A model generated the notes under the pieces. That model was not told the origin of the DNA. It saw nothing but the letters and a program-made list of their open reading frames with translations, and searched no databases. Below are positions 18,259-43,877 of a stretch of 64,000 nucleotides of DNA, one piece after another. The position numbers and the translations under genes are program-made. Origin of the DNA: a bacterium (lineage in GTDB: Bacteria > AUK180). Within the stretch, counting starts at the first letter, position 1, and every line of letters begins with the position of its first letter. The stretch is from NCBI GenBank assembly GCA_023133295.1, contig JAGLWT010000116.1, positions 13,218-77,217 of the forward strand. Reading direction: 5' to 3'.

Positions 18259-18591
18259 TTAGTTCTCCTGCTTATTCTCCAGAATAATTTCTATATAGGG
18301 ATTTTTCTCAGAATAAATATCGTTGAGGCCGACATATCTCCATTGCTGTCTGTTTGGAGTTCCGGTACTATCATGCAAAAAAATCAATATTGGCTTATAT
18401 GCTTCTTTGAATTTCAGATAGCATATTAACGTATTTTCATCCTTTCGAAAACTGTACCCCTGAAAAACTACTGGGCCACAATCTCTATTAATCATAATAT
18501 CCGGAGATAAATCTATTTCTGACTTACTTTTCGCACATTTCTGCAGATAGAACTCTGTTGATAACCTATCGAAATAAAATGGATACGCCAA
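18259..18591 (-). pseudogene. Orphan or truncated copy of the C-terminal domain shared by the GT-C-like membrane proteins at 21108..24877
   Basis: YLKFKEAYKPILIFLHDSTGTPNRQQWRYVGLND aligns with FLRFEKYKPIYLFFHDNFEKPTYQKWRYIDYKLLD from the C-terminus of the 601-aa protein. There is no membrane domain upstream. Confidence 0.5.
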
Positions 18592-18884
18592 CTCTGATTT
18601 CGATTCAAAAAAGCTTTCCCGAGAAAAAGGTCGATGGCAGGATCAATGTCACTTCTAAATACTCTTTTATTTTAAAATATCATATGAGTATTGAAGTTAA
18701 CTGAAAGGTTCTCCGAAGAGAGTAAGATCATATCGCTTCTTAATTCTGAAAATATCACCTCGCTGAATCCTATATTGTGAAACCGCCAACGCAGATACCC
18801 GTCAGATATGACTTTAATATTGTGTGGGGACTCAAATGATGGCATTTTTTCAATTAAACCTCTATTGTTGGTATTTTTCCTGCT

Positions 18885-20231: not shown

Positions 20232-20819
20232 TAATCGTCCTGAAAACGATGAAGCCGTCTTTTTCATATACTTTTTCAAAATTCAGATCTGCAGTCTTTT
20301 CCACCAGGAAGGGTTTTTCAGGGATCCATTGATTAGAATATGCCCGCATATCTTCAAGGCTCACTACCTCTAAAGGAATGAGATTGTTCTTTTTCCCGAA
20401 AAAATACGGGTTGGGAACTATATAATTGATCCGGTTCCTTAAAACCATCTTTTTCATCTCTGCAGGGGTGATATCGGGATGGAAAAAGTCATCGTATTCC
20501 CTTTTTCTATGAAGAACATCCGCGGCCGCGGGATTTGCCACCAGCGGCCATACATGGAATGCGTAATTGTCCGTGGATGTGGCGATATGATAGGCTGTCC
20601 ATTCATCGGAAAGAATATTTTTTTCTCTATTTTATTGTCTGTAAAATAAGTAATGACGCCGGGGAGTTTCGCTTGATCACCCTTGGGTATATGGCGGTTT
20701 AGCAGTGAGAAATTCCGCTTAATGTTGCCTGTATTGAAAAACATCAAAAGGAGTATAATGATACAGATAGTTCCGATAATATAGGGCCGCTTAATTTTCT
20801 TCAGAAGTAACGCCGCCAC
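20221..20819 (-). pseudogene. Frameshifted, N-terminally truncated paralog of the 773-aa membrane protein (26215..28536)
   Basis: Two overlapping track ORFs in different frames. One reads KGDQAKLPGVITYFTDNKIEKK. The other reads NILSDEWTAYHIATSTDNYAFHVWPLVANPAAADVLHRKREYDDFFHPD...NYIVPNPYFF. Together they align collinearly with residues about 500-773 of the 773-aa protein (KLPEIIRYFNKNNIKGGNIISDHWTSYHMAIFTNNYAFAIWPLVADPNAKDVLQREKDYRIFFNE...YIILNPYFY). The frame switches within an A7 homopolymer near 20622-20630. Confidence 0.65.
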
Positions 20820-21107
20820 ATAAGCAATAATAAGAAATACCGTGATAATGTTCGGGAGCTTTGATGCGTATGCACTTGAAATCAGTTTTGATATCAGAGG
20901 AACAAAAAATGGGTTATCGGGTCCCCGATGTAATCGGGGTTTCCAAGGTCACACGCTCAATAACGATAATGACAGTACTTTTTTAGTCATTCCTGTCCCA
21001 TATTAAGCATGTACTCAACTTGATTGGTTGTGCGGGGTAAACTGCATCGTGATAATCTCATTTTCAATTCTTTCCTTATCAACCTACCAACCTATCAACT
21101 TATTTAC

Positions 21108-22913
21108 TTAATTCACTGATATTTCCATTTTGTAATTATTTTTATCTCCAACGGGATAAATGGGCTTCAAATTATCATCGGTAAACAGAATATAGCCATT
21201 TTTGACATCACCTTTAATCTCCATATCAATTTTTACATTTTTTTCTGAATCAAGTAACTTATAGTCAATATATCTCCATTTTTGATAGGTAGGTTTTTCG
21301 AAGTTATCATGAAAAAACAAATATATCGGTTTATATTTTTCAAATCTTAAAAAAGTGATCAGTGTCTTTTTTTCTTCCTTTATTTTTATTGAATAACCTC
21401 TAAATCTAAAATATTTAAAATCCTTATTCAATATATTTTCCGGATTCATTTCAATTCTTTTGTTATTTGCAACTCTATACAATTTTGTATCAATTAAACT
21501 CCGTTCAAAGATAATCGGGAAGGTGTTGTTCCCACATATAAATGTTCCTTTTATAAAAAGATCAAAAGGAAGTTTCGTTTTTCTACTGTAAGATTTCATT
21601 AACATAATATTATACGGTAATTCATTCTTTATAATTAAATTTTCTAAATTTGCATTTGTAGCGATTAACATATCCGCTTTCATTTTTCCAAAATCAAGTT
21701 CCGGAATATTATTTTTATAAAACAAATACCTACTTGCTTCACCGCTTACAGCATAGATTTTCTTATTTTCGTTATCGTTAATTACTTTGTTTCCGACCTC
21801 CGCTGCCGTCTTTGAGTAATCGTAAAATCCTGTAATAAATATTAGAGAAAATGAGATTGCAAATATTAGTTCAAATACACTAAATTTTCTTTTAAATAGA
21901 TTATCTCTTGAATAAAATATAATGAACGGAAATATTAAAGAAAAATTCCTTACCGTTGGCTGCGGATACACAATTATAATTGCAAAAGATATAAAAAGTA
22001 ACCACAAAATATTTTTAAGATCAAATAGCAAAAGGATAGAAATAAGCAAATAGAGAGAAATAATGAATGCAATAATTTTTGAAATATCCGTATTCAAATA
22101 GATACAAAGAAATAATATAGGTAAAAGGAAAAAATACATTTTCTTTTTTCGGGATAAATAGATTAGGATTGGTAATGTAAGAATAGCTAAGTTAATTGGA
22201 ACCGAAAATACTTTTTGAAAAAATCCTATCCTATTTCCGTAATGGTAATCTCCTCTCCATACCAAGGCATCCAAAATAACATTTCCCCCTTTTTCAATAT
22301 AACATATTAGGATATAAAGAAAAATAACAATGATTGGAAAAAAGTAAATGTATACTTTCTTATCTTTTCGTATGATCATATCTATTAGAAAAAACAAGGC
22401 AACTAAAATTATAGCGTAATTTGTTAGAAGTGAAAAGGACAAAAACAAAGATGATAGAATAATATCTTTTAATTTTCTACTTTTTTTATAATCTTCATAT
22501 TTTAAGAAACTTAATATCAGAAAAACAAAGCAGTATGCTTCATGCATAAATGAATTAACAAACAACAAAACAATTGGTGAAATAAATACCAGAAATATTA
22601 GATATTTTTTAGCGGTATATTTTCTAATTATCAGCATAAACACAAAAAGGTAGAGCAAACTTGAAAAAAGATAAAATAAAAATATGTCCTCCTGAATTGG
22701 GAAAAGCGAGGCAAAGAGTAATAAAAGCGGCGGATGCGTATCATTATATACATAAGATTCTTTACCGTAATATGAAAAAGAAGCATTAAATAAACCGCCA
22801 TTTTTGATTGATATCGCGCTAATTAAGTTTTTGGAACTATCCCAAAAGGGAGGGATGAAAATAGTTACTAACACCAGTACGGTTAAAATTATAATGAGAT
22901 ATTTCTTTTTCAC
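21108..22913 (-). CDS. Multi-TM membrane protein, GT-C fold ArnT/PMT-like (GT39/GT83-type) putative glycosyltransferase with a conserved C-terminal soluble domain
   Basis: More than ten predicted TM helices. The first extracytoplasmic loop contains NDTHPPLLLLF, like the HPPL motif of PMT_2/ArnT-type GT-C enzymes. The C-terminal about 110 aa (FLRFEKYKPIYLFFHDN...YQKWRYI...VKNGYILFTDDNLKPIYPVGDKNNYKMEI) is shared with the protein encoded at 22925..24877. Confidence 0.45.
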   Translation of the reverse strand: MKKKYLIIILTVLVLVTIFIPPFWDSSKNLISAISIKNGGLFNASFSYYGKESYVYNDTHPPLLLLFASLFPIQEDIFLFYLFSSLLYLFVFMLIIRKYTAKKYLIFLVFISPIVLLFVNSFMHEAYCFVFLILSFLKYEDYKKSRKLKDIILSSLFLSFSLLTNYAIILVALFFLIDMIIRKDKKVYIYFFPIIVIFLYILICYIEKGGNVILDALVWRGDYHYGNRIGFFQKVFSVPINLAILTLPILIYLSRKKKMYFFLLPILFLCIYLNTDISKIIAFIISLYLLISILLLFDLKNILWLLFISFAIIIVYPQPTVRNFSLIFPFIIFYSRDNLFKRKFSVFELIFAISFSLIFITGFYDYSKTAAEVGNKVINDNENKKIYAVSGEASRYLFYKNNIPELDFGKMKADMLIATNANLENLIIKNELPYNIMLMKSYSRKTKLPFDLFIKGTFICGNNTFPIIFERSLIDTKLYRVANNKRIEMNPENILNKDFKYFRFRGYSIKIKEEKKTLITFLRFEKYKPIYLFFHDNFEKPTYQKWRYIDYKLLDSEKNVKIDMEIKGDVKNGYILFTDDNLKPIYPVGDKNNYKMEISVN

Positions 22914-22924
22914 ATCAATAATCT

Positions 22925-24877
22925 TTATTTTATCTCCATTTTACAGTTATTTTTATCTCCAATGGGATAAATGGGTTTCAAATTATCATTGGTAAACAGG
23001 ATATAACCGTTTTTGACACCACTTTCAATCTCCAGATCAATTCTTACATTTCCGTTCAGATCAAGCAAGTAGTGAGCAATATATTTCCATTTTTGATAAT
23101 CAGGTTTTCCGATATTATCATGAAAAAAAGCATAAGTCGGTTTATATTTTTCAAATCGTACGAAAAGACTCAATATCTTTTCTTGTTCATTCTCTTCAAT
23201 TGAGTAGCCTATAAATTTAAAATACTTAAAATTCATATTTATAATATGTTCCGGTTTCACTTTTCTTGTCTTTATTTTAGCGAAGTGATTTTGTCTATCA
23301 AATCTGAAAATATTAATATTTTCCAATTCAACATTGGATAATGAGTACGGTAATATTCCTAAGTTATTATCATAAAATCCTGCATGTGCCTTGGCGTTCA
23401 TTATTCTATATGGAAACTTACTTTTATAAATAACTTTTTCTATGTGAAGCAGATCCGGTCTAATACTATTTTTTAATTCAGCTGGACATGAATAAGTTGG
23501 AATGATCATTATATCATTTTCCTTTAATTCATTTGAATTCCAGCAATAATATTTAGCATCTATCTTCTCTAAATAGTATCTAAAGCCCCATTCACCCATA
23601 AACCAGACTCTGTTGTTTTTAACAGTAGATTTGATTTCATCAGCAAATCTTTTATAGCTTTCTGCAAATCTATAATCAGCATAAGTAATGCCGATGGTAT
23701 TTCCTAATGTAAGTATTAGCGTAATTGCAATGAACACTTTTTTTAATACTAAATTTAAATTCAAATTTATTAGATCATACGAAATAATAATTGTAATAAC
23801 CGGCAATGTAATTAATAAATATCTTGCAATGCCCAACGGCATAATTAAAGTACAAATGATTAAATACAAAAGAAAGCAAATTGATAAGAATTTTGTAACA
23901 GAATTATTGGGTCTTATAAATTCTTTAATAATTCTAAACATAATTAATAATCCGGAAAATAGAAATATTATAAATAATGACCTGCTTATAAAATTGAAAT
24001 TCCTGGTAAAAAATATCGTACAAGCGATAGTTATTAGTAATTGAATTATTAATAACTTTTTATTTACCGACTTAAGAAGATACAGAGCTATTATTGATAT
24101 GGGGAAAATAGTGGTGGAGCCTATCACTATAATATTTGAAATAAATTTAGGAATGAGCATTGATATAGCCCTTAGCTTTAAATTTGTGTCACCGGGCCAC
24201 ATTAACGCATATAATGGATGTGGAAATCCAAATTTTATTGTTGTGAAGATTATCCAGATCAATATTGATGATAAACAAATTAAAAAGGGTATATAATAAA
24301 TAAATTTCTTTTTTTTGAAAATAAGATAGTACAAAACAAACAAAAAAAGTAGAAATATACCCCGATAATCAATTCCCCATGATATTATTGAAGTAAGTCC
24401 TGATAAAATTAAGAGTAACACATTGTCGTTTTTTACTCCTTTTATAAAAAACAAAAATGCTAATAAAAAAAATGAAAACATTGGAACATCACTCATTATA
24501 CTAATTGACGAAGTAAACAGTATTGAAGAGAAGGAAAACAGAAAGATTGCTGTAAAAGAAAACAAATCAAATTCCTTTAGTATAAAGTACATAGAAACAA
24601 TAGATAAAATATAGAAAATAATATAAAATAAATGAAAATAAGTTTCATTTACCTCTCCTACAATTATATAACAGAAATGACAGTATAAAAAGTTTAGAGG
24701 TGGCTTGGTAAATTTGTAATACGGTACAGTTTCACCAAGAAAATATACATAATTCTCCTTCGAAAAGAAATTCTTTATAGGAACTTGACCATAAGGTGTC
24801 CTCTGAATAGATTCAATTGTCTTATGGTCATCTATATTGAATGGTTTGTTTACAAAAATTAACTGGACTGATAACAT
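22925..24877 (-). CDS. Multi-TM GT-C-like putative glycosyltransferase, tandem paralog of 21108..22913
   Basis: Same architecture. Loop motif YKFTKPPLNFLY. C-terminus FVRFEKYKPTYAFFHDNIGKPDYQKWKYI...GVKNGYILFTNDNLKPIYPIGDKNNCKMEIK. The 3' ends are about 85-90% identical to 21108..22913 at the nucleotide level (compare 21125-21200 with 22935-23010). Confidence 0.45.
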   Translation of the reverse strand: MLSVQLIFVNKPFNIDDHKTIESIQRTPYGQVPIKNFFSKENYVYFLGETVPYYKFTKPPLNFLYCHFCYIIVGEVNETYFHLFYIIFYILSIVSMYFILKEFDLFSFTAIFLFSFSSILFTSSISIMSDVPMFSFFLLAFLFFIKGVKNDNVLLLILSGLTSIISWGIDYRGIFLLFLFVLYYLIFKKKKFIYYIPFLICLSSILIWIIFTTIKFGFPHPLYALMWPGDTNLKLRAISMLIPKFISNIIVIGSTTIFPISIIALYLLKSVNKKLLIIQLLITIACTIFFTRNFNFISRSLFIIFLFSGLLIMFRIIKEFIRPNNSVTKFLSICFLLYLIICTLIMPLGIARYLLITLPVITIIISYDLINLNLNLVLKKVFIAITLILTLGNTIGITYADYRFAESYKRFADEIKSTVKNNRVWFMGEWGFRYYLEKIDAKYYCWNSNELKENDIMIIPTYSCPAELKNSIRPDLLHIEKVIYKSKFPYRIMNAKAHAGFYDNNLGILPYSLSNVELENINIFRFDRQNHFAKIKTRKVKPEHIINMNFKYFKFIGYSIEENEQEKILSLFVRFEKYKPTYAFFHDNIGKPDYQKWKYIAHYLLDLNGNVRIDLEIESGVKNGYILFTNDNLKPIYPIGDKNNCKMEIK

Positions 24878-25390
24878 GATGATCAGTAATAAAAAAAACT
24901 TAATTCCTTTTAAATTATATTTTTCTATAATAACTAACCATCCTTTTCTTTAAGGAACCTTTTCTCGCTTCCTTCGGTCATTTCAGATTTTTTTAAATCT
25001 CCTTCTCTATCGTAAGTCTGCTCCTTTTTGACATATTGCCTTCATTTCATCCGAAAGGACGAATTCCATTTCGCTACGCTGCATTCCATTCGCCCTTCAT
25101 GGTGTAAACTATTGTTTGTCTCACTTTCAAGGGAGAGCAGGACATTGTGACCTATCAGATTAGTTGAAATATATCGGATTTTTCAGAAAAAGTCAAATAA
25201 TTTATTGTTTCTATATATCAAAATATGCGTTTTTTTATTCTAACCATTTTGATTTGATAATATTTTTAAGTTCACGATTGCCTTTAACATTTAAATGATA
25301 AGTTTTATCGAGAGAGAGTTTATCCGGAATAAAAATGCAACTTTTTATATCTAATTCCTTATTAATTTTTTCAATATCATCCACCATTTT

Positions 25391-26218
25391 TTAAAAAAAA
25401 TAATACTTATTATCTTTTTTGTTCTGTGTCAACATATAATTCCCAAGTATAATAATTGACAAATTGTATTCATTCTGAATCTTTTTTATAAGATACCTAT
25501 ACCTATTTAATCCTTCATTATAATCTTTACTGTACTTTTTAAAATATTCATAACTGTCTTCTCCTTGATAGTATTGGCTTTTCTTTTTGTCTTTAATATT
25601 TAATGATAAATACATCGGGTGCAAAAGAGCAATCAATGGATCATTATTTATAATCCAGGGAAATGCTCTTTTATTGGGATAAACTATTGAATATTCATTC
25701 CCATTTTTAACTATTGTCGGGGCTGATCCTGGATAACGAAAGAACTCTCCAAAATCATTTCCTATATAGAAAATAATAAGCACATTTGAACCTTTTGAGA
25801 TATTATATTTTTTAAGTAAAAGATACTCTTGTATCGGCGAATATGTAATAACCCCGAAATTATAAAAATAATACCCATTCCCCTCTTTATTTAACAGAGA
25901 TGTAAAGAGATTGTTGTTTATAACATAATTATCAGTTTGAGAATCTCCCAATACATATATAGGAATCTCATTATCTCTTATTTTTCTGCAATTTCGATTA
26001 CCATATTTCCCTGTTTTGATCTTTGCCTTTGATCGTCGAGCCTGATAAAATTCATTGTGTTTAATTCCAAGTATATTATCATAAACATAGGAACCATATC
26101 CATTTTTACCCTTATTAAAACCACTGATATTACAATGAACAAATAAAATAATATCCAATAATAAAAAACAAATTATAATAAAAAGTAGTATCTTTAAAGC
26201 TTTTTTGAAGATATTCAT
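25391..26218 (-). CDS. SGNH/GDSL-family hydrolase-like protein (possible glycan O-acyl esterase or transferase)
   Basis: N-terminal TM anchor. IPIYVLGDSQTDNYV gives a GDS(x) block-I motif. Overlaps the upstream 773-aa gene by 4 nt. Confidence 0.45.
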   Translation of the reverse strand: MNIFKKALKILLFIIICFLLLDIILFVHCNISGFNKGKNGYGSYVYDNILGIKHNEFYQARRSKAKIKTGKYGNRNCRKIRDNEIPIYVLGDSQTDNYVINNNLFTSLLNKEGNGYYFYNFGVITYSPIQEYLLLKKYNISKGSNVLIIFYIGNDFGEFFRYPGSAPTIVKNGNEYSIVYPNKRAFPWIINNDPLIALLHPMYLSLNIKDKKKSQYYQGEDSYEYFKKYSKDYNEGLNRYRYLIKKIQNEYNLSIIILGNYMLTQNKKDNKYYFF

Positions 26219-28536
26219 TTTAAGTTCACCATTATAAATCTTTTATTTCTAATGGGTAAATACGGTCTATGATTCCTATCTGTAAAAATGATTTTATAGT
26301 CTCCATTATTCTTAGATATCTTAATATGACATTTAACAAAAGACCATACACCCATTTCTTCCATAGTTAATGAGTGCCAATTTTGTACTACAAGTTTATC
26401 ATCCTTATAATTATGAATAAACATAACCAGATCATCATCTATTTCCTTCATCTTTAAATATATTTCATAGATATAATTATTTTCTTTTTCAATCTTGTTA
26501 TACCCTAAAAAAATGAATTTTCTATAATTTAAATTTACTTTATGTTTATAATCCAAAGCTATTTTTTTGCTTTTATCTAACATTTGATTGCTATGGAAAT
26601 TCATCTTAAAAATATAATATCCATTTTCACAAAAAACCTGTTCTGCATTTAACTTTAAAACTTTATCTACAATAAAATTCCGATCCGGGCCCCATTGTAA
26701 AGAGTGTTTCCACATATTTTCAATAGAATTTACTTCAATGGCTTTAACATTTCGTTCCGGTTTATAAAAATAGGGATTTAATATTATATACTTTATACCC
26801 CATTTTTTTAAGATTTCATCCATTTCTTTTACTTTAGTTTTCTCATTAAAAAAGATTCTATAATCTTTCTCCCGTTGTAGAACATCTTTGGCATTGGGAT
26901 CAGCTACGAGTGGCCAAATTGCGAAAGCATAATTATTTGTAAATATAGCCATGTGATATGAAGTCCAGTGGTCTGATATTATATTTCCCCCTTTTATATT
27001 ATTTTTATTAAAATATCGTATAATTTCGGGCAACTTGCTTTTTTGTGATACACCTATATTATTCTTTATCAGTTTATAATCGCGTACCAAATTCTTAAAG
27101 ATTTTGGGACTTATAATCAGCAAAAAACATATTAGCAAAAAACCGAAATATTTTGTCTTCAATTTCTTTTTCAATTCAAGAATTATAAAAGCCAAAATTA
27201 AAAAAGCAGGTACAAATATACTTAATTTCGAAGCATAAGCACTACTGATTATTTTTGATAAACCTACTACAAGAATTGGATTTAACAACAACAAAGGAGA
27301 AAGGACTGCTGTTGATATCATAAATTGTAAAGTAGTGTTTCTTCTAATTTTTTTAATAAAAAACAATATTCCTAAAAAAGCTATCAATGGAGTAATCGGA
27401 TAAATTGTAGGTGGTAGTGTAAACATAATATAGATTTGGCGAAAGACAAATTTTGGATGAATAATAAACAGATTTTTTGTAAGAAAGACGAGGTGATCCG
27501 GAAGAAAGAAAGCTTGCTGTGCAAGTTGTGGATCATAATGTAATGGATTGTGAATACCATAAGATAACCATTTTAGAATGTAATAAGGAATATTGAAAAT
27601 CGTAACATAGAAAAAGATCTCTATAACCCTTCTATTACTTTTATCCCTCAATAATATTTTCACAAGAAATATCGCAAAGAGCGAAAGATAGAAAAGAATC
27701 ATATAGAATATCTGAAATTCCGTCAATATCAAAGAAATAATTATTGTAGTCCAAAGGTATTTTTTATCACTGCTGTCAAGGTATTTAATCATTTCAATTA
27801 GTGCCAACGGCAATATCGTATACATTGCAATAGCATCCGCGAGTGCAAATTTTCTCAATATCAATCGCTCATACCCTATTCCCCCGAAATGAAAAATAAA
27901 TACTAATACTACAAGTAAACCACCAAGATTTTTCTTCAAAAGATGTTTCCCAAAACAATATTGGGCAAATATAGCAATAAAGCTCATATACGCCGGAAGA
28001 TTTATCCATATTTTTAAAGGATCCAATCCGGAAATTTTGCTGTAAATCAATATCATAAAATGGTAAAGGCTAAAAGAGAATCTCGGATCCATCCCTTCAT
28101 TACTATAGACAAAATTCTTGTTTTGCACTATATTGTTAAAAAGAGATTTGTAAATTATGGAAAGGTTGTTAAGATCGTTTGCAATATCTCCTTTAATAAT
28201 ATAAAGCAATATTACATAAACCAGTGCTATACCAATTGTAACAGATGAATAAGTGTTAAGCGGTATGATTTTTGTGCTTTTTATTTTTTTTGAAAGCAAT
28301 AGAAACAAAAAGAACATTACTAATAAAATATATATTACATATACTAAAAATACCGTTTTTTTAAGCGATAGCTCAAAAAGAAACCCTAAACCACAAGGGA
28401 TATAATAAATTAAAAGGGAAAGCACAAAGAAATACGGAACTTTTTCAATACCTAATTCCTGAGAAAAGAAAATTCTATATATGACGATGCCTGGAACAAT
28501 AAATAAAAAAATAAAATAGAGTAATTCAATTATCAT
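26215..28536 (-). CDS. Large multi-TM membrane protein (773 aa), GT-C/YfhO-like putative glycosyltransferase, with a related C-terminal soluble domain
   Basis: About 14 TM helices followed by a roughly 280-aa C-terminal soluble region. The last 80 aa (DDLVMFIHNYKDDKLVVQNWHSL...GDYKIIFTDRNHRPYLPIRNK) resemble the C-terminal domain of the 601-aa and 650-aa proteins. The pseudogene at 20221..20819 is a paralog. Confidence 0.4.
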   Translation of the reverse strand: MIIELLYFIFLFIVPGIVIYRIFFSQELGIEKVPYFFVLSLLIYYIPCGLGFLFELSLKKTVFLVYVIYILLVMFFLFLLLSKKIKSTKIIPLNTYSSVTIGIALVYVILLYIIKGDIANDLNNLSIIYKSLFNNIVQNKNFVYSNEGMDPRFSFSLYHFMILIYSKISGLDPLKIWINLPAYMSFIAIFAQYCFGKHLLKKNLGGLLVVLVFIFHFGGIGYERLILRKFALADAIAMYTILPLALIEMIKYLDSSDKKYLWTTIIISLILTEFQIFYMILFYLSLFAIFLVKILLRDKSNRRVIEIFFYVTIFNIPYYILKWLSYGIHNPLHYDPQLAQQAFFLPDHLVFLTKNLFIIHPKFVFRQIYIMFTLPPTIYPITPLIAFLGILFFIKKIRRNTTLQFMISTAVLSPLLLLNPILVVGLSKIISSAYASKLSIFVPAFLILAFIILELKKKLKTKYFGFLLICFLLIISPKIFKNLVRDYKLIKNNIGVSQKSKLPEIIRYFNKNNIKGGNIISDHWTSYHMAIFTNNYAFAIWPLVADPNAKDVLQREKDYRIFFNEKTKVKEMDEILKKWGIKYIILNPYFYKPERNVKAIEVNSIENMWKHSLQWGPDRNFIVDKVLKLNAEQVFCENGYYIFKMNFHSNQMLDKSKKIALDYKHKVNLNYRKFIFLGYNKIEKENNYIYEIYLKMKEIDDDLVMFIHNYKDDKLVVQNWHSLTMEEMGVWSFVKCHIKISKNNGDYKIIFTDRNHRPYLPIRNKRFIMVNLK

Positions 28537-28786
28537 TTTTAGTTATTATATAAATCTTGGAAATCCCGAAAAACCATGAATAAGCATTTTTTATCAGGGA
28601 TTTTATGATTTTTTTAAAGCGGAGTGTAACAATACTGATATAATTTTCCTTATTATGGTAAGGGCTTTTTATCCCAAAAAGTAAACGAAAATATGGATTT
28701 GAATTTAAAACAAATCTGGACTGTATCCATGTAAACTTAAATATCAGTTTATTTTGAAATATTCTTTCTATTACGGTCATAGTCAT
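28526..28786 (-). CDS. Small hypothetical protein (86 aa) whose start and stop both overlap the neighbouring genes
   Basis: The ORF overlaps the start of the 773-aa gene (28526-28536) and the stop of the methyltransferase gene (28783-28786), consistent with translational coupling. No recognisable family. It could also be a spurious bridging ORF. Confidence 0.3.
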   Translation of the reverse strand: MTMTVIERIFQNKLIFKFTWIQSRFVLNSNPYFRLLFGIKSPYHNKENYISIVTLRFKKIIKSLIKNAYSWFFGISKIYIITKNDN

Positions 28787-29646
28787 CTACCCTCTACTTT
28801 TTTTGCATAAATTGTTGCCACATCAAAAAGATTGAGATATATTTTAATCTTTCCTATCTTATTTTTCAATAAAAATAAATATATCGCTTTAAATATAGGA
28901 AATTTTCTTTGAATATGATAAAAGATATGTCTTGAATAATAAAATTTCCCGTAATATTTAATAGATTTAATTTCAAACCCATTATTATTACAAAAGTATT
29001 TAATACTTTTCTTTGTAAAATAATTTAAATGATATGGGGGTATAAAAAGGTACCATTTTCTCCCCATTATTCGAGCAAATAGTGAATCTATCAGAGGAAC
29101 TGTTAATATGAGCGCTCCATTTGCATTAAGATCTTTACCTATGTTACGGAGCATTCGCGCGGGGTATTTTACATGTTCAAATATATCAAATGCGGTGATA
29201 ATATCATATTTCGTATCTTGTGAAGAGGTTTCGTAATTATGAACTTTCAGGTCAAGAAAGTATCTTTCCTTTCCAAGGGCAATAATCTCCTCTCCTATAT
29301 CAACACCCTGAAGCTGCATATTCGAAATTTCGGAAATGGAGTAAAGAAACTCACCGGAAGCACAACCGATATCTAAAAGAGAAGATGCTCGCTTGGAAAC
29401 ATGTTTCACAAGCCTTCTGAAAATCTGACACCAATTTCCATCAATGCAATCGTCAATATAATTTCCGTATCCTTCGTCACTATTTGGATTTACAAAGGAG
29501 TCCAGATTATATAGATCGTCATATCGTATATCTGCAAAACCCTCATAGAACACCGAGCCGCAATTTGAACATTTTACATGCTTTTTCACAATCTCTCTTT
29601 TCAATATCATAAGGGAGTTGCAGCCGCATAATTTACATTTTTTCAT
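28783..29646 (-). CDS. Class I SAM-dependent methyltransferase with an N-terminal zinc-ribbon (sugar C/O-methyltransferase-like)
   Basis: CKLCGC...CSNCGS zinc ribbon. LLDIGCASGEFL matches motif I (GxGxG-like). A later D..FEH(V) acidic motif is typical of Methyltransf_11/12-family enzymes. Confidence 0.65.
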   Translation of the reverse strand: MKKCKLCGCNSLMILKREIVKKHVKCSNCGSVFYEGFADIRYDDLYNLDSFVNPNSDEGYGNYIDDCIDGNWCQIFRRLVKHVSKRASSLLDIGCASGEFLYSISEISNMQLQGVDIGEEIIALGKERYFLDLKVHNYETSSQDTKYDIITAFDIFEHVKYPARMLRNIGKDLNANGALILTVPLIDSLFARIMGRKWYLFIPPYHLNYFTKKSIKYFCNNNGFEIKSIKYYGKFYYSRHIFYHIQRKFPIFKAIYLFLLKNKIGKIKIYLNLFDVATIYAKKVEGR

Positions 29647-29750
29647 ATTTAAATATTTAGTTTTCCATGATTCTGAACAACTCTACTCCTTCACATCGAG
29701 GAGAAGAGAAATAATTATTGTAAAGCAAAAGACTGCTTTTGCTATTTATT

Positions 29751-31412
29751 TCATTTCTCAATTTTATAATCTCCCATTACGAGAATATCGATCCCTGTGC
29801 CGCTAAATGTATTTATCGCATCCTGAGGAGTGCATACGATCGGCTCTCCCCTGATATTGAAAGAGGTATTCAAAACCAACGGGATGCCCGTAAGTTTTTC
29901 AAATTCCCGTATTAGAGAATAATATCTCCCATTCTGTTCTTTACTTACCGTTTGAACCCTTGCCGTTCCGTCGACATGTACAACTGCAGGTATTTCTTTC
30001 CGCTTTTGCTGAACTGTATCGAAAACAATTGTCATATAAGGAGATTTACCGCAGCCGATAAAATAATCTCCGGCTTTTTCCTCAAGAACACTTGGTGCAA
30101 ACGGGCGGAAACCCTCTCGATGCTTGACCTTTTCATTAATAAGGTCTTTCATGTCCTTCTTTCTGGGATCCGCAAGAATGCTTCTGTTGCCGAGGGCGCG
30201 TGGTCCGAATTCCATTTTCCCCTGATACCAACCGACTATTTTCCCCCTGCTTATTTCCAAAGCCGTATCCTTTTCTATTTCACTTGATCTTGTAAAATGA
30301 AGTTTATTCTTTTTGAGAACATTCAATATCTCTTCATTGTCAAAAGCAGGACCCAGATAGGCATTATTCAACGGCAATTTACTTTCATTACCAAGTATAT
30401 TATAGTATCCGTACAGAGCGGCGCCAAGCGAAGTTCCCGCGTCATTGGAAGCGGGCTGGACATACATATCTTCGATATCGGTTTCTCTGAGCAACCGTCC
30501 ATTAGCAACCGAGTTCAGGGCGACGCCTCCTGCCATACAGAGATATTTCAAGGAGTATTTGTTGAGATAATACCGTACTACCTCTAGAAGCACTTCCTCT
30601 GTAACTTTTTGTAAAGAAGCGGCCATATCCATTTCAAGATCCGTAAATTCAGTAGCATTGTCATGGGGATAGAAGTTATGCTTTCTTTCAAATTTTTCAG
30701 TGATATAACTCTCCCAGCCATGTGAGAGATTGAATTTTGAAAGATCAAAAGAAAACCGTCCTTTGCCTACCCTTACAAGTGACATGATCTCAGAAAAATA
30801 CTTCGGTGTACCGTAAGGAGCCAGGCCCATGAGCTTACCTTCTCCATTATGTGCTTTGAACCCAAGATACTGAGTGATATCAGAATACAGCATTCCCAGG
30901 GAATGAGGGTAGTTCACATGTGCCACCTGTTCAATAAGGTTACCCCTTCCGATTCCAACGGTCATCGTCTCGAATTCCCCTGAATGATCAATTGATAGTA
31001 TAAGGGATTCGTCGAAGCCGCTCGGATAGAAAGCGGAGGCCATATGCGCCATATGATGTGATATCTTGACAAAGCGGGCATCTCTTAATATATCAATAGC
31101 CCTTACCTTTTTCCTGATGCCCAAAAGAGATGATACATATGAGCTCCTGGAATGAAGGTATTTTAACGATGAGGGAAATCGCAGCAGAAGAAATCCCGCC
31201 CGCTGAAACAGCATGGGAGTATTGAGCCAGGGAAAAACGATCAGCTCAGGAGAAGTATCATACTTGTTGCCGATAAGCTCAAGGGATTCATGCGGAAAAA
31301 CCGATGTATGTTTTTCTCTTGAAAGACGCTCCTCCTCGATCGAGAATACGGATTCCCCTGAGATCACAGTTATAGAAGAATCATGTGTATAACAATTCAA
31401 TCCCAGTATCAT
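29751..31412 (-). CDS. Carbamoyltransferase, NodU/CmcH family
   Basis: MILGLNCYTHDSSITVI...EEERLSREKH...HHMAHMASAFYPSGFDESLILSIDHSGE...ALNS...SFN matches the NodU/CmcH N- and C-terminal domains along its length. Confidence 0.85.
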   Translation of the reverse strand: MILGLNCYTHDSSITVISGESVFSIEEERLSREKHTSVFPHESLELIGNKYDTSPELIVFPWLNTPMLFQRAGFLLLRFPSSLKYLHSRSSYVSSLLGIRKKVRAIDILRDARFVKISHHMAHMASAFYPSGFDESLILSIDHSGEFETMTVGIGRGNLIEQVAHVNYPHSLGMLYSDITQYLGFKAHNGEGKLMGLAPYGTPKYFSEIMSLVRVGKGRFSFDLSKFNLSHGWESYITEKFERKHNFYPHDNATEFTDLEMDMAASLQKVTEEVLLEVVRYYLNKYSLKYLCMAGGVALNSVANGRLLRETDIEDMYVQPASNDAGTSLGAALYGYYNILGNESKLPLNNAYLGPAFDNEEILNVLKKNKLHFTRSSEIEKDTALEISRGKIVGWYQGKMEFGPRALGNRSILADPRKKDMKDLINEKVKHREGFRPFAPSVLEEKAGDYFIGCGKSPYMTIVFDTVQQKRKEIPAVVHVDGTARVQTVSKEQNGRYYSLIREFEKLTGIPLVLNTSFNIRGEPIVCTPQDAINTFSGTGIDILVMGDYKIEK

Positions 31413-32374
31413 TCAATTCTCCGTATATGATCGGCCAGAACCCCTGCAATATATCTATTGCCTTCCGGAGAAAAGTGAATATCATCCACATAAAGGTCAT
31501 CATAAAGCAAGAGATCGGTTTTGCGCATTTCCTGTGAGATATCCACAAAATCTACTCTGCATTCCTGAAACACTTCCCTCATTACTTCCTGATATGAAAA
31601 GTCCGCTCTATTGAGTAATTGATATCTTAGCGGAGTAATTATAAATATGGGGTGGATCTTTCTCTTCTCGCAGGTCATTTTTATTCTCTCTATCTTCTTT
31701 GTCAGATCTTTGCGCAAATACGGATCATTATATTTCATGGCAGCGGAAGCGTAAAATTCTTTGCTGTTATAAGCTTTTTCATAATTTCCGGCAAAGAGGA
31801 GCTTTGCTAATGCAAATAAATATGAATACGAAAAAGGGCGCTTTGTTACTATAACCTCGGCGTCTGTGTCAAGTTCCAGAAAACCTATCCCGTTCAGATG
31901 AAATGCATAAAGTATATCATCGATAAAATACTGCCATACTACAATTTCGGGGGGATTTTTCTGGAGATTCTTCTCCAATATCACAATATTTTGATCAAGT
32001 CCATAGCCGCAAACCCCCATATTGTGAACATTGAATTCTTTCAATTCGCCTTGAAGAAACACCGGGTAGGTTTCATCGTCCTCAACTCCCAGGCCGGCAG
32101 TAATGGAATCGCCTATGCAGATAATGTTTTTTTCTGACTTCTCTATGGTATTCAAATTCCTGTACCCTGATGAATTTATTGTAAATTTCTTATTTCGCCA
32201 CATATATGACGATGATTTTCTATAACGATATCCAAGTTCACTGTCTTTTTCGAAAATTCTTCTGTCATAATCCTGTAGCTTTGATATGGGGTCCAATAGT
32301 CTTGCAAGGCCTTCAAAAAGCAGAAAAAGGATCAAAAAAAACAATAAATACTTAGACAGCCGTTTTATCAACAA
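31409..32374 (-). CDS. SGNH/GDSL-family hydrolase-like protein
   Basis: N-terminal TM. IICIGDSITAGLGV block-I motif. Later DDIHFSPEG, similar to the DxxH catalytic block. Overlaps both flanking carbamoyltransferase genes. Confidence 0.55.
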   Translation of the reverse strand: MLIKRLSKYLLFFLILFLLFEGLARLLDPISKLQDYDRRIFEKDSELGYRYRKSSSYMWRNKKFTINSSGYRNLNTIEKSEKNIICIGDSITAGLGVEDDETYPVFLQGELKEFNVHNMGVCGYGLDQNIVILEKNLQKNPPEIVVWQYFIDDILYAFHLNGIGFLELDTDAEVIVTKRPFSYSYLFALAKLLFAGNYEKAYNSKEFYASAAMKYNDPYLRKDLTKKIERIKMTCEKRKIHPIFIITPLRYQLLNRADFSYQEVMREVFQECRVDFVDISQEMRKTDLLLYDDLYVDDIHFSPEGNRYIAGVLADHIRRIE

Positions 32375-34043
32375 TTAAATAATCTCCTAATATAAGCACA
32401 TCAATATCTGTTTTCAAGAATGTCTCTATCGCCTCGGCAGGAGAGTTGACGATAGGTTCTCCCCTGATATTAAATGAGGTGTTCAATACAACCGGAACAC
32501 CTGTGATCATTTCAAATTCTCTGATAAGATCATAGTATCCCGGATTTTGCTTTCTATTTACCGTCTGAACCCTGGCCGTACCGTCAATATGCACTACCGC
32601 GGGAATATCATTTTTCTTTTCATCCAATACATCAAAAACAAAAAGCATAAATGGAGAAGAGACACACCCTTTAAAATACTCCCCTGCCTTCTCTTCGAGA
32701 ATGCTCGGCGCAAAAGGTCGAAATCCCTCGCGATGCTTTACCCTTTCATTCAGAATATCTTTCATTTCCCCTTTTCGGGGATCCGCAAGAATACTTCTAT
32801 TGCCAAGGGCGCGGGGGCCGAATTCCATCTTTCCCTGATACCAGCCGACTATCTTGCCGCGGCTTAATTCCTGAGCTGCTGCTTTTTCAATATTAGCCCG
32901 CTTACTATAGGGAAGTTTATTCTTATGGAGTTGAATCTTGATATCATCATCACTGTAGCTGGAACCAAGGTATGCATTATCCATGATATATTTCCGTTCC
33001 CGCCCCAATATTGAATGTTGAACATATAGCGCTGCTCCGAGCGCGGTTCCCGCATCATTTGCCGACGGTTGAACAAAAATATCCTCAAAGGGACCTTCCC
33101 TTTGAATGAGACCGTTTGCAACCGAGTTCAGCGCCACGCCCCCAGCAAGGCAGAGTTTTTTCTCGCCGGTCTCTTCATAGAGATTCTCGGAAAGCAAAAG
33201 CATATACTTCTCCAGTATTCTCTGAAGGGATGCTGCCATATTCTCATGGAATGTTGTTATTTCGCTTTCCGGGTCTCTTCTTGGACCGAATCGGCGGATG
33301 AACTTCTTTGAGATATCCCTTTCTACTGAATTCTGAAATTCAAAATAACTGAGGTCTATTCTCATCCTATTTTCCTTCACGGTGATCATCTCATCAAGAT
33401 CATTGAAATACTCCGGCTTTCCGTAAGAAGAAAGGCCCATTACCTTTCCATCGCCGGAATGCACCTGAAACCCCAGATATCTTACAATGGCGGAATAAAA
33501 ATAGCCTAATGAATGGGGAAATGGATTTTCGTATATTTTCTCGATACGGTTTTTCGATCCCTTTGCCAAAAGATAGGTGGATCTTTCTCCGGAACCGTCA
33601 ATTGACAATATTGCCGCGCTGTTAAAAGGTGTGGGAAAGAAAGAAGATGCCGCATGGGCAAGGTGATGTTCTACAAAATATGTCTTTTTTACTTTCAGCG
33701 GAATATATTTTCTGACATTCAGCATCTTAAAAAAATCTCCGCCATGTGTTCTACCCCAACTCAGGCTTTTTGGGAAATTCCTTATTATGGTGGGTAGTCT
33801 TCCCTGAATTCCCAGGAGAGGTTTCACATAATATGCAAGGATAATCTCCTCATCCTTTGCCAATATTCCATTTTTAAAAAGATAATCAAATATTCCATGC
33901 GGAAATTTTCCGGTGTATTTTTCTCTGTTGAAACGCTCCTCTTCGGCTGCGAAGAGGATACTGCCGCCTTCATCGATGACGGCAACAGAGCTAAGATGCC
34001 TAAAGCAATTCAATCCGATTATTTTCATCTGTAAATTATACAT
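32352..34043 (-). CDS. Carbamoyltransferase, NodU/CmcH family (paralog)
   Basis: IIGLNCFRHLSSVAVIDEGGSILFAAEEERFNREKYTGKFPH...HHLAHAASSFFPTPFNSAAILSIDGSGE. The C-terminal 170 aa are nearly identical to the first carbamoyltransferase (RALGNRSILADPRK...KHREGFRPFAPS...LNTSFNIRGEPIV). Confidence 0.85.
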   Translation of the reverse strand: MYNLQMKIIGLNCFRHLSSVAVIDEGGSILFAAEEERFNREKYTGKFPHGIFDYLFKNGILAKDEEIILAYYVKPLLGIQGRLPTIIRNFPKSLSWGRTHGGDFFKMLNVRKYIPLKVKKTYFVEHHLAHAASSFFPTPFNSAAILSIDGSGERSTYLLAKGSKNRIEKIYENPFPHSLGYFYSAIVRYLGFQVHSGDGKVMGLSSYGKPEYFNDLDEMITVKENRMRIDLSYFEFQNSVERDISKKFIRRFGPRRDPESEITTFHENMAASLQRILEKYMLLLSENLYEETGEKKLCLAGGVALNSVANGLIQREGPFEDIFVQPSANDAGTALGAALYVQHSILGRERKYIMDNAYLGSSYSDDDIKIQLHKNKLPYSKRANIEKAAAQELSRGKIVGWYQGKMEFGPRALGNRSILADPRKGEMKDILNERVKHREGFRPFAPSILEEKAGEYFKGCVSSPFMLFVFDVLDEKKNDIPAVVHIDGTARVQTVNRKQNPGYYDLIREFEMITGVPVVLNTSFNIRGEPIVNSPAEAIETFLKTDIDVLILGDYLIVDKTAV

Positions 34044-34083
34044 TATCTAATAATTTATGCAAGATTCTTCCGATTGGAGGAAA

Positions 34084-34788
34084 TCATTTTTTCAGTCTTT
34101 CGCTGAAGAGGACAAAAAAGGCATAAATAGCATCTATCCAATGAATTTTGCTTTCCTCGACCTTTCTCGGAGTATAAGATATCGGGATCTCACAGAATCT
34201 ATAATTGAATTTAAAGATCTTTGCTGTGATCTCACACTCCATTTCAAATCCGTCATATTTCAGATTCAACGACTCCAGAATGCCTTTTCTGAACACCTTA
34301 TAGCCCGATGCTTCATCTGTAATATTTTTTCCATATAGTATCCGCACCGTCAGATTAATGAGTTTATTCGCCAGGAGCCGGGGAATTGATTTCATTTTTA
34401 CTTTTTTCAAAAATCTTGAACCGTATACAACATCGGCCTGCCCTGCTATGATCGGGAGTAACAAACCGGATATCTCTTCCGGATAATACTCCAGATCGGC
34501 ATCCTGAATAACAACAATATCACCGGAAGACACTTTCAAGCCTTTTTTTATTGAATAACCCTTTCCTCTGTTCACGCGGTTTTCACAAAGGATATCATAA
34601 AGATTGAAGTTCTCTTTCAATATTGCGTTCGAACTGTCTGTCGAACCGTCGTCCACTACGATGACTTCATGTTTAAATGAAAGCTTGGCGATCCGCTCAA
34701 GGACCTTCAGGATAGTTTCCGATTCATTGAAAGCCGGAATGATTATCGAGATCATCGCGTCAAATTCCGCGTTCTTCATATTTCTCAT
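34084..34788 (-). CDS. Family-2 glycosyltransferase, polyprenol-phosphate sugar synthase (Dpm1/ArnC/GtrB)-like
   Basis: ISIIIPAFNESETI, VIVVDDGSTDSS, VVIQDADLEYYPEE (DAD) and GSRF motifs at 234 aa are typical of Dpm1-like GT2 enzymes, which supply lipid-linked monosaccharide donors to GT-C enzymes. Confidence 0.7.
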   Translation of the reverse strand: MRNMKNAEFDAMISIIIPAFNESETILKVLERIAKLSFKHEVIVVDDGSTDSSNAILKENFNLYDILCENRVNRGKGYSIKKGLKVSSGDIVVIQDADLEYYPEEISGLLLPIIAGQADVVYGSRFLKKVKMKSIPRLLANKLINLTVRILYGKNITDEASGYKVFRKGILESLNLKYDGFEMECEITAKIFKFNYRFCEIPISYTPRKVEESKIHWIDAIYAFFVLFSERLKK

Positions 34789-37310
34789 TTTTCATCCCAT
34801 AAGATCCGGTACAATAAGGGGTAGTTGCTTCTATCTTCTATTGTGATATCGGGAAGGGATGATCCTTGGTCATTAAAATCGTAGTAGGTGAACAAATATC
34901 TAAAATAATCCTCCATTACAAGCGTCTTAGCACTCGCAAATTCATTGTATATCTTCAATGAATCAGCAGGACCCCAATCCTTATCAATATATTTTTTTGT
35001 GTACATCTCAATGGTAGTCCTTATAAGATCTTTTTCATCCTGATTCAGTCTTTTCTCCTCCTTTAGAAGAAAGGGAAAAAGTTCAGGAAAAAATAGACCG
35101 ACAGAACGAAGATCCCTGATAAACCCCTCGCCCAGGACAGAATATGTGTTTCCGTATAATTTATTATGACGCAGAGCAAAGCGGCAAGGTTCAATAATGC
35201 TACTTTTCATTATTTTTTCGTAAAGTTCCTTGAAAGCAGAACTTTCCGAAGGATTTATCAGGTATTTAAGATAGGGATATTCTGAAAATTCTCCTTCAAG
35301 TATCATACTCGCAAAAGAACTGGTGCAATCTGGATCGATCCTGTACGGGAGATTCCATATGGTGTAAAGCGGCCCTTTCAGGTAGGAGTAGGAAGAGAAA
35401 TATTCCGCTAAGACAACGATATTCTCTTTTTCGGCAATCTTCGTATCGAAATTAAATAAGTAATAGAGCGGATTGAAAATATTCTCTTCGGAATCCTTCA
35501 GAAAAGGAGGAAAAGGGCTGTAAAGGTCTTTCAGGAGAAGATATTTTCTGTCTTTTTCAATTCTAACGAGAGCCGATATTTTATCAAATCTCTTTTTGCC
35601 AAATCCAAATGGTGAATTTCTTAAGGATATTATTTCCTCGATCTCCTTCCTTCTGTCTGATAATTCCCCATAAGTCCTTGCGGCTTCATAATTTCCAAGC
35701 AGTATATTTATTACCGCTATATTTTCTGTGGTATATATCGGTTTGCGAAGCAGTCCTTTTCCCTCGCCGTATTCACCTGTTCGGAATTTAGCGATTGCCA
35801 ATGAAAAAAAGTTTTCCGCGGAGGGGTCGTATTTGACCAGCTCCTCAAGTTCGTCTGAGATCTGCTGCCATCTATTTTCAAAGCGGTAGTATTTCAAAAG
35901 CATTTTCCTTGTGTGTTTCAGTTCCGGTACCAGATATTTAGAAAAAAGGAGTAATTCTTCCGCCTCGCTTTTCTTTCCGCGCTGAAGCAGAATTTCTGCT
36001 TTCAGATTTAAAAGTTCTGGATAAAGATCCTCATCCAATGCAGAATCAATATATTTAATCGCCTGTTCATAATCACCTTTTTTATAGGATTCCACTGATT
36101 TTGCATTGAATTCAAGATAGCGCTTATAAAAGATCTGATGATTTCCAAGTTCGCCTGTGAACTGGATTATATTAATAGAGATCGGGATCAGCAGGAGTGC
36201 CCATTTTATGCTTCCGGGCAGGGCTATGCTCCGGATTTTATATTTGAACGGATAAAATAGGAGTATGAAGATCAAGACAGCGATCGGCTGATGCAAAGGA
36301 AAATCAAATATAAGGGATATTAAAAATGCCAGAAGGGGGGCGCTTCGGGATGTTGCCTGACCAAGAAGATATTCTGATAAGGAAATAAATACGATCAGAA
36401 ATAAGAAAATGCCGATGAATCCTCCCTCAACACCCATGTGTATGATCTCGCTATGGGCGCGCCTGACCAGAAATTTGGAGGTGGAGTAAAGCCCTTTTTC
36501 TTTACTTACTGCAGCAAGGTTCTTCTTATATGCCGATGGAAACCTGCCTAGGCCGGTGCCGAAAGGATTTTCAATTACTGTTTTCAAGCCGGTCCTGATT
36601 ACGGTTCTTCTGGTATTTAAAGGGTGAGCAACGGTTATTACAAGGAAAAATCCCAGAATGATGGCAGTATAGAATATTATTCTCCTCAGAATACTTTTTT
36701 TGATTAATGAGATCAAAATAGACAGCAGGGTTATTGCTATCATTATTTTAGAAAATGTCATCAAAAGAGCTATCCCTGAAACAAATAGAAAAAAGTAATT
36801 TCTCTTTTTGAAAAAGAACATTTCTGCAAGAAATCCCATCGTCAGTACTACCGCCAGTTCATTAGGATTCCCCATAGTCGAGAACACACGCTTACCCGAC
36901 CAGTCAAATTCCCAGAATGAAAAATCTATCTTGAAAAATTGCAGGACTGCGTACAGCGAAACAAGGAATATCGAAACACGCAGCCAACGATAAAGAATAT
37001 CGGTATTGAAACTGGATTCCGAGATCAAAAGAAAAAGCAATACCTGAACAAGGCAGAAAAATCCACACCAGGATGGATTGACAGCAAAGAAGACCAGAGC
37101 GGCGAAAAAGATCAGAATCGATCTGAATGTAACCCTCTTAATAGTAAAAACCACGGGCAAAAAAGATATTAACAGTAATTTGGGAAGAAGAAAAGAACTT
37201 TTAAGTATTGGAAGAAATATCAGTACCGATAGAAATATCAATGCCCCGGCAAAATGTACGGTATATGTTTTCTTTCCCATTGATTTTTTTTCTACATCTT
37301 GTTTCTGCAT
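34785..37310 (-). CDS. Wzy_C (O-antigen ligase / PglL-type oligosaccharyltransferase)-like polytopic membrane protein with C-terminal TPR repeats
   Basis: About 10-12 TM helices with a HSEIIHMGVEGGFIG loop, resembling the Wzy_C His/Arg catalytic loop. The C-terminal about 450 aa contain TPR-like repeats (YEQAIKYIDSALDEDLYPELLNLKAEILLQRGKKSEAEELL...). Confidence 0.5.
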   Translation of the reverse strand: MQKQDVEKKSMGKKTYTVHFAGALIFLSVLIFLPILKSSFLLPKLLLISFLPVVFTIKRVTFRSILIFFAALVFFAVNPSWCGFFCLVQVLLFLLISESSFNTDILYRWLRVSIFLVSLYAVLQFFKIDFSFWEFDWSGKRVFSTMGNPNELAVVLTMGFLAEMFFFKKRNYFFLFVSGIALLMTFSKIMIAITLLSILISLIKKSILRRIIFYTAIILGFFLVITVAHPLNTRRTVIRTGLKTVIENPFGTGLGRFPSAYKKNLAAVSKEKGLYSTSKFLVRRAHSEIIHMGVEGGFIGIFLFLIVFISLSEYLLGQATSRSAPLLAFLISLIFDFPLHQPIAVLIFILLFYPFKYKIRSIALPGSIKWALLLIPISINIIQFTGELGNHQIFYKRYLEFNAKSVESYKKGDYEQAIKYIDSALDEDLYPELLNLKAEILLQRGKKSEAEELLLFSKYLVPELKHTRKMLLKYYRFENRWQQISDELEELVKYDPSAENFFSLAIAKFRTGEYGEGKGLLRKPIYTTENIAVINILLGNYEAARTYGELSDRRKEIEEIISLRNSPFGFGKKRFDKISALVRIEKDRKYLLLKDLYSPFPPFLKDSEENIFNPLYYLFNFDTKIAEKENIVVLAEYFSSYSYLKGPLYTIWNLPYRIDPDCTSSFASMILEGEFSEYPYLKYLINPSESSAFKELYEKIMKSSIIEPCRFALRHNKLYGNTYSVLGEGFIRDLRSVGLFFPELFPFLLKEEKRLNQDEKDLIRTTIEMYTKKYIDKDWGPADSLKIYNEFASAKTLVMEDYFRYLFTYYDFNDQGSSLPDITIEDRSNYPLLYRILWDEK

Positions 37311-37352
37311 CTATATTTCACCCGAAGAATGATCTACAGGTTCTTTCTGTTA

Positions 37353-43868: not shown

Positions 43869-43877
43869 GGCAGCCCC

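Follow-up and report, generated by a model that had tools for sequence, protein, structure and literature searches.

Wzy_C and WaaL-like domains cannot by themselves separate protein O-oligosaccharyltransferases (O-OTases) from ligases; the O-OTases PglL and PglS are told by the combination of PglL_A and Wzy_C_2 (PMC12645811, PMC3643930). In WaaL, R191 and R265 bind pyrophosphate and H313 activates the acceptor; the clan also includes polymerase (Wzy) families, in which Asp or Glu stands where the ligases have His (PMC10920833). The PglL equivalents R224, R298 and H349 are conserved (PMC3643930). Here we describe a gene of this superfamily in a 64,000-nucleotide stretch of DNA from a bacterium of the AUK180 lineage (assembly GCA_023133295.1, contig JAGLWT010000116.1, positions 13,218 to 77,217), hereafter the window. 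The gene is a single ATG-started open reading frame (ORF) of 841 codons at 34785..37310 on the minus strand, and its 841-residue product is very probably a functional en-bloc glycan ligase of the WaaL/PglL superfamily (Wzy_C; GT-C_B fold) with a predicted periplasmic recognition module.

The exact protein is held by NCBI as MCK4643712.1 on a 125.5-kb contig of a metagenome-assembled genome and has been annotated before, as 'O-antigen ligase family protein [bacterium]'; near-identical fragments in other assemblies carry the submitter labels Candidatus Calescamantes or Atribacteria. Since the ratio of nonsynonymous to synonymous substitution rates (dN/dS) is 0.195 over residues 1-419 when compared with the 95%-identical copy in locus L005, the ORF is under purifying selection. 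The same comparison gave 0.045 for the neighbouring comEC gene, and by this measure the ORF is functional yet under weaker constraint than comEC.

Membrane domain, catalytic positions and C-terminal tail

The Pfam Wzy_C match to the ORF product is weak and stays below its gathering score (Table 1), but the domain is nonetheless real because homologues and structure secure the assignment. The Wzy_C-type membrane domain named in the initial annotation thus stands, with the Pfam score as its weak side. The gathering score is exceeded by the relatives L008 (38.7 bits), L006 (32.7 bits) and P0002 (41.6 bits), and Wzy_C is matched at E <= 0.001 in 51 of the 52 aligned sequences, the query counted in. 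When 1.84 billion cluster representatives were searched exhaustively with phmmer, only five close relatives were returned at E <= 1e-30 (identities of 30-41%, plus one fragment at 90%), along with 55 distant matches with E values of 1e-8 to 1e-3. Since the 90%-identity cluster of the 841-residue protein is represented by a fragment of 132 residues (P0006), a word-indexed protein search missed both the query and its family and is uninformative on rarity. The AlphaFold model used here was built from the 52-sequence alignment, with a predicted local distance difference test (pLDDT) score of 83.7 and a predicted template-modelling (pTM) score of 0.78; a single-sequence prediction with a pLDDT of 42 was discarded. 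Against the PDB, the membrane-domain profile gave exactly two matches, 9rmk_A (E 1.9e-17, 66.5 bits) and WaaL 7tpg_B (E 1.2e-14, 57.3 bits).

Within the WaaL-like core of 12 transmembrane (TM) helices, K188, R234 and H286 occupy the three WaaL positions for phosphate binding of undecaprenyl pyrophosphate (Und-PP) and acceptor activation, on the periplasmic face. The conserved Wzy_C loop residues, on which the initial annotation had staked its assignment, are therefore present. R234 aligns with WaaL R265 and PglL R298, and H286 with WaaL H313 and PglL H349; R234, G251 and G253 are invariant in all 52 sequences, while H286 is found in 44. Since H286 is a His at the position where Wzy polymerases have Asp or Glu, the ORF product follows the ligase/O-OTase pattern and not that of a polymerase. 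At position 188 the charge is kept but not the residue: Lys is present in all six close-family sequences (alignment A5), whereas Arg is found in 30 of the 52 sequences of the wider set.

The helices of the confident AlphaFold model place 13 TM segments within residues 1-388, and the short loops carry 14 Lys and Arg residues on the proposed cytoplasmic side versus 4 on the other, as the positive-inside rule would have it. By homology, the catalytic loop must be periplasmic. It is followed by four helices (288-317, 321-335, 342-355 and 366-388), which are separated by the conserved DFPLHQP turn and a KYKIR loop; the turn itself aligns with the region of the PglL_A motif, which is periplasmic. 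With four helices after a periplasmic loop, the remainder of the chain (residues 389-841) is predicted to be periplasmic as well. This placement draws on the TM count, the positive-inside rule and the periplasmic anchor residues, and it agrees with the initial annotation, for which a cytoplasmic tail would have been fatal. Since WaaL (413 residues) ends after its twelfth helix, TM13 is the likely exporter of the tail.

The tail had been described as a TPR array of roughly 450 residues. A degenerate TPR-like module does occur, but it spans only about a third of that length (residues ~398-564), and residues 565-841 form a separate helical domain. The model shows about 11 paired helices within 398-564. 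Matches of the Pfam TPR models are confined to residues 407-454 and all fall below threshold, and the L008 sister allele has no TPR model match even at E <= 10. A profile of the close family, searched in turn, matches consensus TPR proteins and MamA over residues ~387-545 with E values of 7e-9 to 1e-5. The domain at 565-841 is conserved in every full-length relative, with invariant positions that include D595, P601, N613, P614, L634, F638 and L644. It gave no TPR signal, no Pfam match and no PDB match in profile searches, and no independent homologue in the exhaustive phmmer search; a word-indexed profile search was also empty, though its recall was poor and known family members were missed too. 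The combination of Wzy_C with TPR is already common, being present in about half of the distant homologues, and a role of such TPRs in recognising proteins has already been put forward in a passage of PMC2943079.

We propose that TM13 would bring everything C-terminal to it into the periplasm, and that some five degenerate TPR repeats and the family-specific helical domain of ~280 residues would lie there beside the active site. The donor would be a flipped, Und-PP-linked glycan whose decoration may be specified by the surrounding variable island (see below), and the TPR/C-terminal module would hold the acceptor, to which this glycan would pass by inverting transfer.

Table 1. Positions in the window of the features of the ORF product, its neighbours and the island
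Feature	Coordinates	Strand	Remarks
Strain-variable glycan island, ~19 kb	18036..37352	.	ORF at its edge
GT2 gene, 234 aa	34084..34788	-	PF00535, E 1.6e-30; Dpm1/AglJ/ArnC-like
Family-specific C-terminal helical domain, residues 565-841	34788..35618	-	Last ~45 residues of low model confidence
Degenerate TPR-like module, residues ~398-564	35619..36119	-	About five helix pairs plus capping helix; predicted periplasmic
Membrane domain, residues 1-388	36147..37310	-	~13 TM: WaaL-like 12-TM core plus TM13 (residues 366-388)
DFPLHQP, residues 336-342	36285..36305	-	Periplasmic TM11-TM12 turn; site of PglL_A motif residues H400/E404/P406
Pfam Wzy_C (PF04932), residues 174-305	36396..36791	-	Sub-threshold: 22.7 bits vs gathering score 31.7
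Long periplasmic catalytic loop, residues 227-287	36450..36632	-	R234 (NTR), G251-x-G253-x-G255-R-F, H286 (RAHSE)
K188 codon	36747..36749	-	Position of the first pyrophosphate-binding Arg (WaaL R191 / PglL R224), residue-level alignment
comEC, 966 aa	37353..40253	-	PF03772, PF13567, TIGR00361

Acceptor and donor of the putative ligase

Sequence alone seldom tells O-antigen ligases from protein O-OTases, and for this enzyme it cannot tell protein from lipid glycosylation. With somewhat less than even confidence we favour a protein, which would make the enzyme a PglL/TfpO-like O-OTase; the single most likely acceptor would be Ser/Thr of a periplasmic or surface protein. Several observations speak for this. 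The layout of core, extra TM segment and periplasmic helical repeats is that of PglL and WsfB and is unlike the canonical WaaL of ~410 residues. Of the two PDB matches of the membrane-domain profile, the PglL-like 9RMK has a slight lead in score over WaaL. GNPN and DFPLHQP occur at the sites of the PglL-specific residues Q178/N180 and H400/E404/P406, although GNPN-type motifs are widespread among Wzy_C proteins. Finally, five of the six out-group homologues whose contexts were looked up adjoin a pilin/prepilin-peptidase or a signal-peptidase gene.

Other findings weigh against a protein acceptor. Neither PglL_A (PF15864) nor Wzy_C_2 (PF11846) matched the query, L008, L006 or P0002 at E <= 10, and Wzy_C_2 matches only one of the 52 aligned sequences; since this pair fails to match the family, we do not file the ORF product in the PglL class. 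The prepilin G-F-T-L-I-E motif was not found in six frames of the window or of L008, L001, L003 and L006, and neither the window nor the loci of close relatives contain a pilin gene or any other evident acceptor gene. The strain-variable island and the 29%-identical allele (see below) suit a glycan- or core-specific ligase or a polymerase at least as well as a glycan-promiscuous O-OTase, and periplasmic TPRs are also known as scaffolds of polysaccharide export, as a passage of PMC2943079 states. The support from the out-group comes from homologues of only 24-31% identity (E ~1e-8 to 5e-6). The initial claim of an O-OTase rather than an O-antigen ligase is thus partly supported, by the PglL-like layout, the 9RMK score and the out-group contexts, but it has no backing from PglL_A/Wzy_C_2 or from an adjacent acceptor gene.

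None of the six out-group homologues lies in a lipopolysaccharide (LPS) locus. Three belong to type IV pilus loci, where they follow a canonical pilin gene, immediately precede a prepilin peptidase gene, or do both; two directly follow a signal-peptidase-I-like gene, and one is in a tandem array of five paralogues. The tfpO-like order pilin - Wzy_C+TPR - pilD is found for P0007, P0009 and P0016 (24-28% identity), and the prepilin motif is present beside the homologues in L019 and L021. In L021:4055-6985, L019:6455-10408 and L023:569-3010, the Wzy_C+TPR gene stands between a canonical type IV pilin gene (KGFTLIELMIVVAI...) and pilD, and that of L021 also follows pilB and pilC. These arrangements suggest an uncharacterised clade of putative TPR-bearing pilin O-OTases. 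Five head-to-tail Wzy_C+TPR paralogues of 537, 615, 648, 690 and 620 residues fill L020:546-9829 on one 10-kb contig, while L022:471-4751 and L025:3920-7743 have in common the order TolB_like - Peptidase_S26 (signal-peptidase-I-like) - Wzy_C.

A WaaL-type ligase that transfers the island-specified Und-PP-linked glycan onto lipid A-core or another envelope glycolipid or polymer, with the TPR/C-terminal module binding not a protein substrate but a partner such as the transport machinery or a co-polymerase, is the best of the alternatives, though we consider it unlikely. Characterised WaaLs are without a C-terminal periplasmic domain (7tpg, 413 residues), and no lipid A, LPS-core, wzx, wzz or initiating phosphoglycosyltransferase gene is recognisable in the window. 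In addition, three more distant relatives are found in a housekeeping neighbourhood (dnaN-gyrBA-mutS2) and not in an LPS locus, and the out-group contexts are protein-maturation loci.

It is improbable that the enzyme is a Wzy-type polymerase of Und-PP-linked surface-polysaccharide repeat units, its TPR forming a scaffold for export in the manner of BcsC, PelB or AlgK. Pfam Wzy_C and the CAZy clan GT-C1 do also contain polymerases (PMC10920833), and TPRs are described in a passage of PMC2943079 as a hallmark of polysaccharide-export scaffolds. The divergence of the two alleles (29% identity between strains) is also typical of Wzy, for which identities down to 16% are reported between serotypes of one species (PMC10920833). 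Against this, the acceptor-activating position is His (H286) rather than the Asp/Glu of the polymerase families, no wzx, wzz/polysaccharide co-polymerase or Wza-type gene is present in either version of the island, and the two PDB profile matches are a ligase and an O-OTase.

In a further reading, which is very improbable, the coupled Dpm1-like family 2 glycosyltransferase (GT2) would charge a polyprenyl-monophosphate carrier with one sugar, the enzyme would transfer that sugar, and K188 would reflect the change of donor. The genes do overlap, every close-family sequence has the Arg-to-Lys change, and a Dpm1-like GT2 accompanies both island versions with no recognisable phosphoglycosyltransferase or Wzx. 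Against this, no member of the fold class is known to use such a donor (table in PMC10920833), Lys still supplies the positive charge, the GT2 adjacency is not conserved (~5 kb off in L008 and absent beside the gene in L001, L003 and L006), and donors of this type would be expected to serve the PMT_2-type GT-C proteins of the island.

The strain-variable island and its surroundings

The positions given in the initial annotation for the ORF and its two neighbours were exact. The TGA stop of the ORF and the ATG of the GT2 gene share 4 nt (ATGA), and 42 nt separate the comEC stop (37353) from the ORF start; a promoter/terminator scan of 20-40 kb found no convincing terminator in this gap. The neighbours had also been named correctly. 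The best NCBIfam matches of the GT2 are all polyprenyl-phosphate sugar synthases (AglJ, 4.4e-37; ArnC-type, 7.6e-22; PpgS, 1e-19), so that 'Dpm1-like' is a fair label, although no NCBIfam match reached an equivalog cutoff; the comEC gene is identified by the three family matches in Table 1. Since an independent assembly (locus L005) has the comEC-ORF junction too, at 95% DNA identity, the junction is no assembly artefact.

In a near-conspecific strain (locus L008), DNA identity to the window is 93.6% as far as the stop codon of comEC. Similarity stops exactly there and resumes only inside the gene for a 1081-residue surface protein, at 15067-15435; the L008 arrangement is also found in L014-L018, from several samples. 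Read from the comEC side, the island of the window holds the ORF, the GT2 gene, a carbamoyltransferase, an SGNH protein, a second carbamoyltransferase, a methyltransferase, proteins of 773 and 275 residues, a PMT_2 GT-C protein (650 residues), a 601-residue polytopic protein and a flavin adenine dinucleotide (FAD) oxidoreductase. The L008 island instead encodes a hypothetical protein, GNAT, methyltransferase, WbqC, a fused MFS/spermidine-synthase-like protein, an 841-residue homologue of the ORF product, an SGNH-like protein, two polytopic proteins and two GT2 proteins. Only three families, each at 27-29% protein identity, are common to the two versions: the ORF (the 29% allele), the Dpm1-like GT2 and the 275-residue protein (383 residues in L008). 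Since the islands differ past the comEC stop, the ORF is a cassette component of a strain-variable surface-glycan locus, with comEC as its border.

For this reason we dropped the comEC adjacency as a possible functional link (compare ComP/PglS in Acinetobacter) and regard comEC as a conserved island border; the link is further undercut by the L008 homologue, which lies ~6 kb away from comEC.

The core of the island (21108-29646) has a GC content of 26-32%, compared with 38-44% around it, and encodes three proteins of ~12 TM segments (601, 650 (PMT_2) and 773 residues), the 275-residue protein and the methyltransferase. The core proteins are probably GT-C-type periplasmic glycosyltransferases from a donor of lower GC content. 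Between 29751 and 34043 on the minus strand, two NodU/CmcH-type carbamoyltransferase genes (553 and 563 residues) bracket the SGNH/GDSL gene, which suggests that the island glycan may be carbamoylated. On the far side, the 1081-residue surface protein (14790-18035, minus strand) has a C-terminus with weak resemblance to FlgD_ig or the C-terminal domain of type IX secretion substrates, and its gene adjoins one for a PorV-like protein (13832-14782). Compared with the sister-strain copy, the protein is only 36% identical, although ~370 nt near the 3' end of the gene are 84% identical. The glycan island is therefore flanked by a diversifying surface protein.

In the more distant family members (L001/L007, L003/L009 and L006/L004) the gene follows dnaN-dciA-gyrB-gyrA-TPR-mutS2. 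It is preceded in these relatives by a conserved, overlapping ORF of 145-183 residues (L001:9484-10020, L003:9583-10020, L006:9454-10005 and L004:2870-3172), which encodes 2-3 TM segments and has no counterpart in the window. We considered this small protein as a pilin-like acceptor and rejected it, as it has no Pfam or PDB match, is unlike the out-group pilins and contains no prepilin motif. In the alternative version of the island (L008:7762-9975 and L002:1-1345), the Wzy_C-TPR gene is preceded by a gene for a 737-residue fused MFS/spermidine-synthase-like membrane protein (NF037959).

Two other regions of the window were noted. Upstream of comEC, 40402-51371 (minus strand) encodes a protein of 663 residues that matches HHH_3 weakly, a ComEA-like protein of 492 residues with two HHH_3 matches, and two giant lamin-tail proteins of 1020 and 1178 residues, the longer of which also has Big_5 and fn3; this stretch is >93% conserved with sister strains and may be a DNA-binding/uptake surface module. 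A possible cytoskeletal/cyclic di-GMP cluster, unrelated to the Wzy_C-TPR gene, lies at 3866-8501 and consists of two bactofilin genes side by side and genes for a TPR protein, a crescentin-like coiled-coil protein of 685 residues and a PilZ-domain protein.

What is new here is a very small and divergent subfamily with a conserved extra C-terminal domain and a fixed Arg-to-Lys change at the first phosphate-binding position, together with documented cassette exchange between near-identical strains. Strains with ~94-97% identity elsewhere thus exchange the enzyme as part of a glycan-tailoring island, and the enzyme extends the known Wzy_C+TPR architecture by an extra domain predicted to be periplasmic. 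At its most ambitious, the locus would represent a general protein O-glycosylation system of an uncultured lineage, in which a transferase with a previously unseen periplasmic acceptor-recognition domain of ~280 residues is swapped between near-identical strains as a cassette with glycan-tailoring genes. We hold this whole picture to be a long shot; if true, it would amount to serotype switching of the glycoproteome. In an even less conventional version, the fixed Arg-to-Lys change and the translational coupling to the GT2 may point to a polyprenyl-monophosphate sugar donor for a WaaL-fold enzyme. Should the acceptor be a protein, the system would offer a compact model for co-evolution of glycan type and transferase and possibly a new O-OTase scaffold for glycoengineering; should it be a lipid, only the tail would set the enzyme apart from ordinary serotype-specific ligases. 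In both cases the significance is modest, as the gene was annotated already and nothing found here conflicts with current knowledge.

Comparison with WaaL, PglL, TfpO and WsfB

WaaL of Cupriavidus metallidurans (7TPG/7TPJ; CAZy GT121) ends after TM12, at 413 residues, and has no periplasmic C-terminal domain. The ORF product differs from it in this respect, and also in scoring below the Pfam Wzy_C threshold and in its context, which is without LPS-core genes.

The closest structure is 9RMK, whose chain A is deposited as 'Oligosaccharyltransferase'. By its residues it is a Neisseria PglL-type enzyme, as Q178, N180, R298, H349, H400, E404 and P406 match the NmPglL numbering of PMC3643930. Besides being the best PDB match and having the Arg and His positions in common with the ORF product, PglL resembles it in an N-containing motif of the TM5-6 loop (GQRN, compared with GNPN in the ORF product), in a polar-x3-polar-x-P motif of the TM11-12 turn (HSMLEYP, compared with DFPLHQP) and in its overall plan, with a helical, periplasmic C-terminal part attached to a WaaL-like core. 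The differences are that the ORF product has no PglL_A/Wzy_C_2 match, has Lys in place of the first Arg, and has a C-terminal part of ~450 residues, compared with ~170 beyond residue 440 in 9RMK; its domain of ~280 residues has no counterpart there, and the close-family profile alone misses PglL.

The likeness to TfpO/PilO is one of gene layout and is seen in the out-group homologues P0007, P0009 and P0016. TfpO/PilO is encoded beside its own pilin gene, whereas the ORF and its close relatives have neither a pilin gene nor a prepilin motif. The S-layer O-OTase WsfB of Paenibacillus alvei belongs to a Gram-positive S-layer glycosylation cluster and differs in that respect, yet from its description in a passage of PMC2943079 it shares with the ORF product both the combination of Wzy_C with a C-terminal TPR and the idea that the TPR recognises the protein to be glycosylated.

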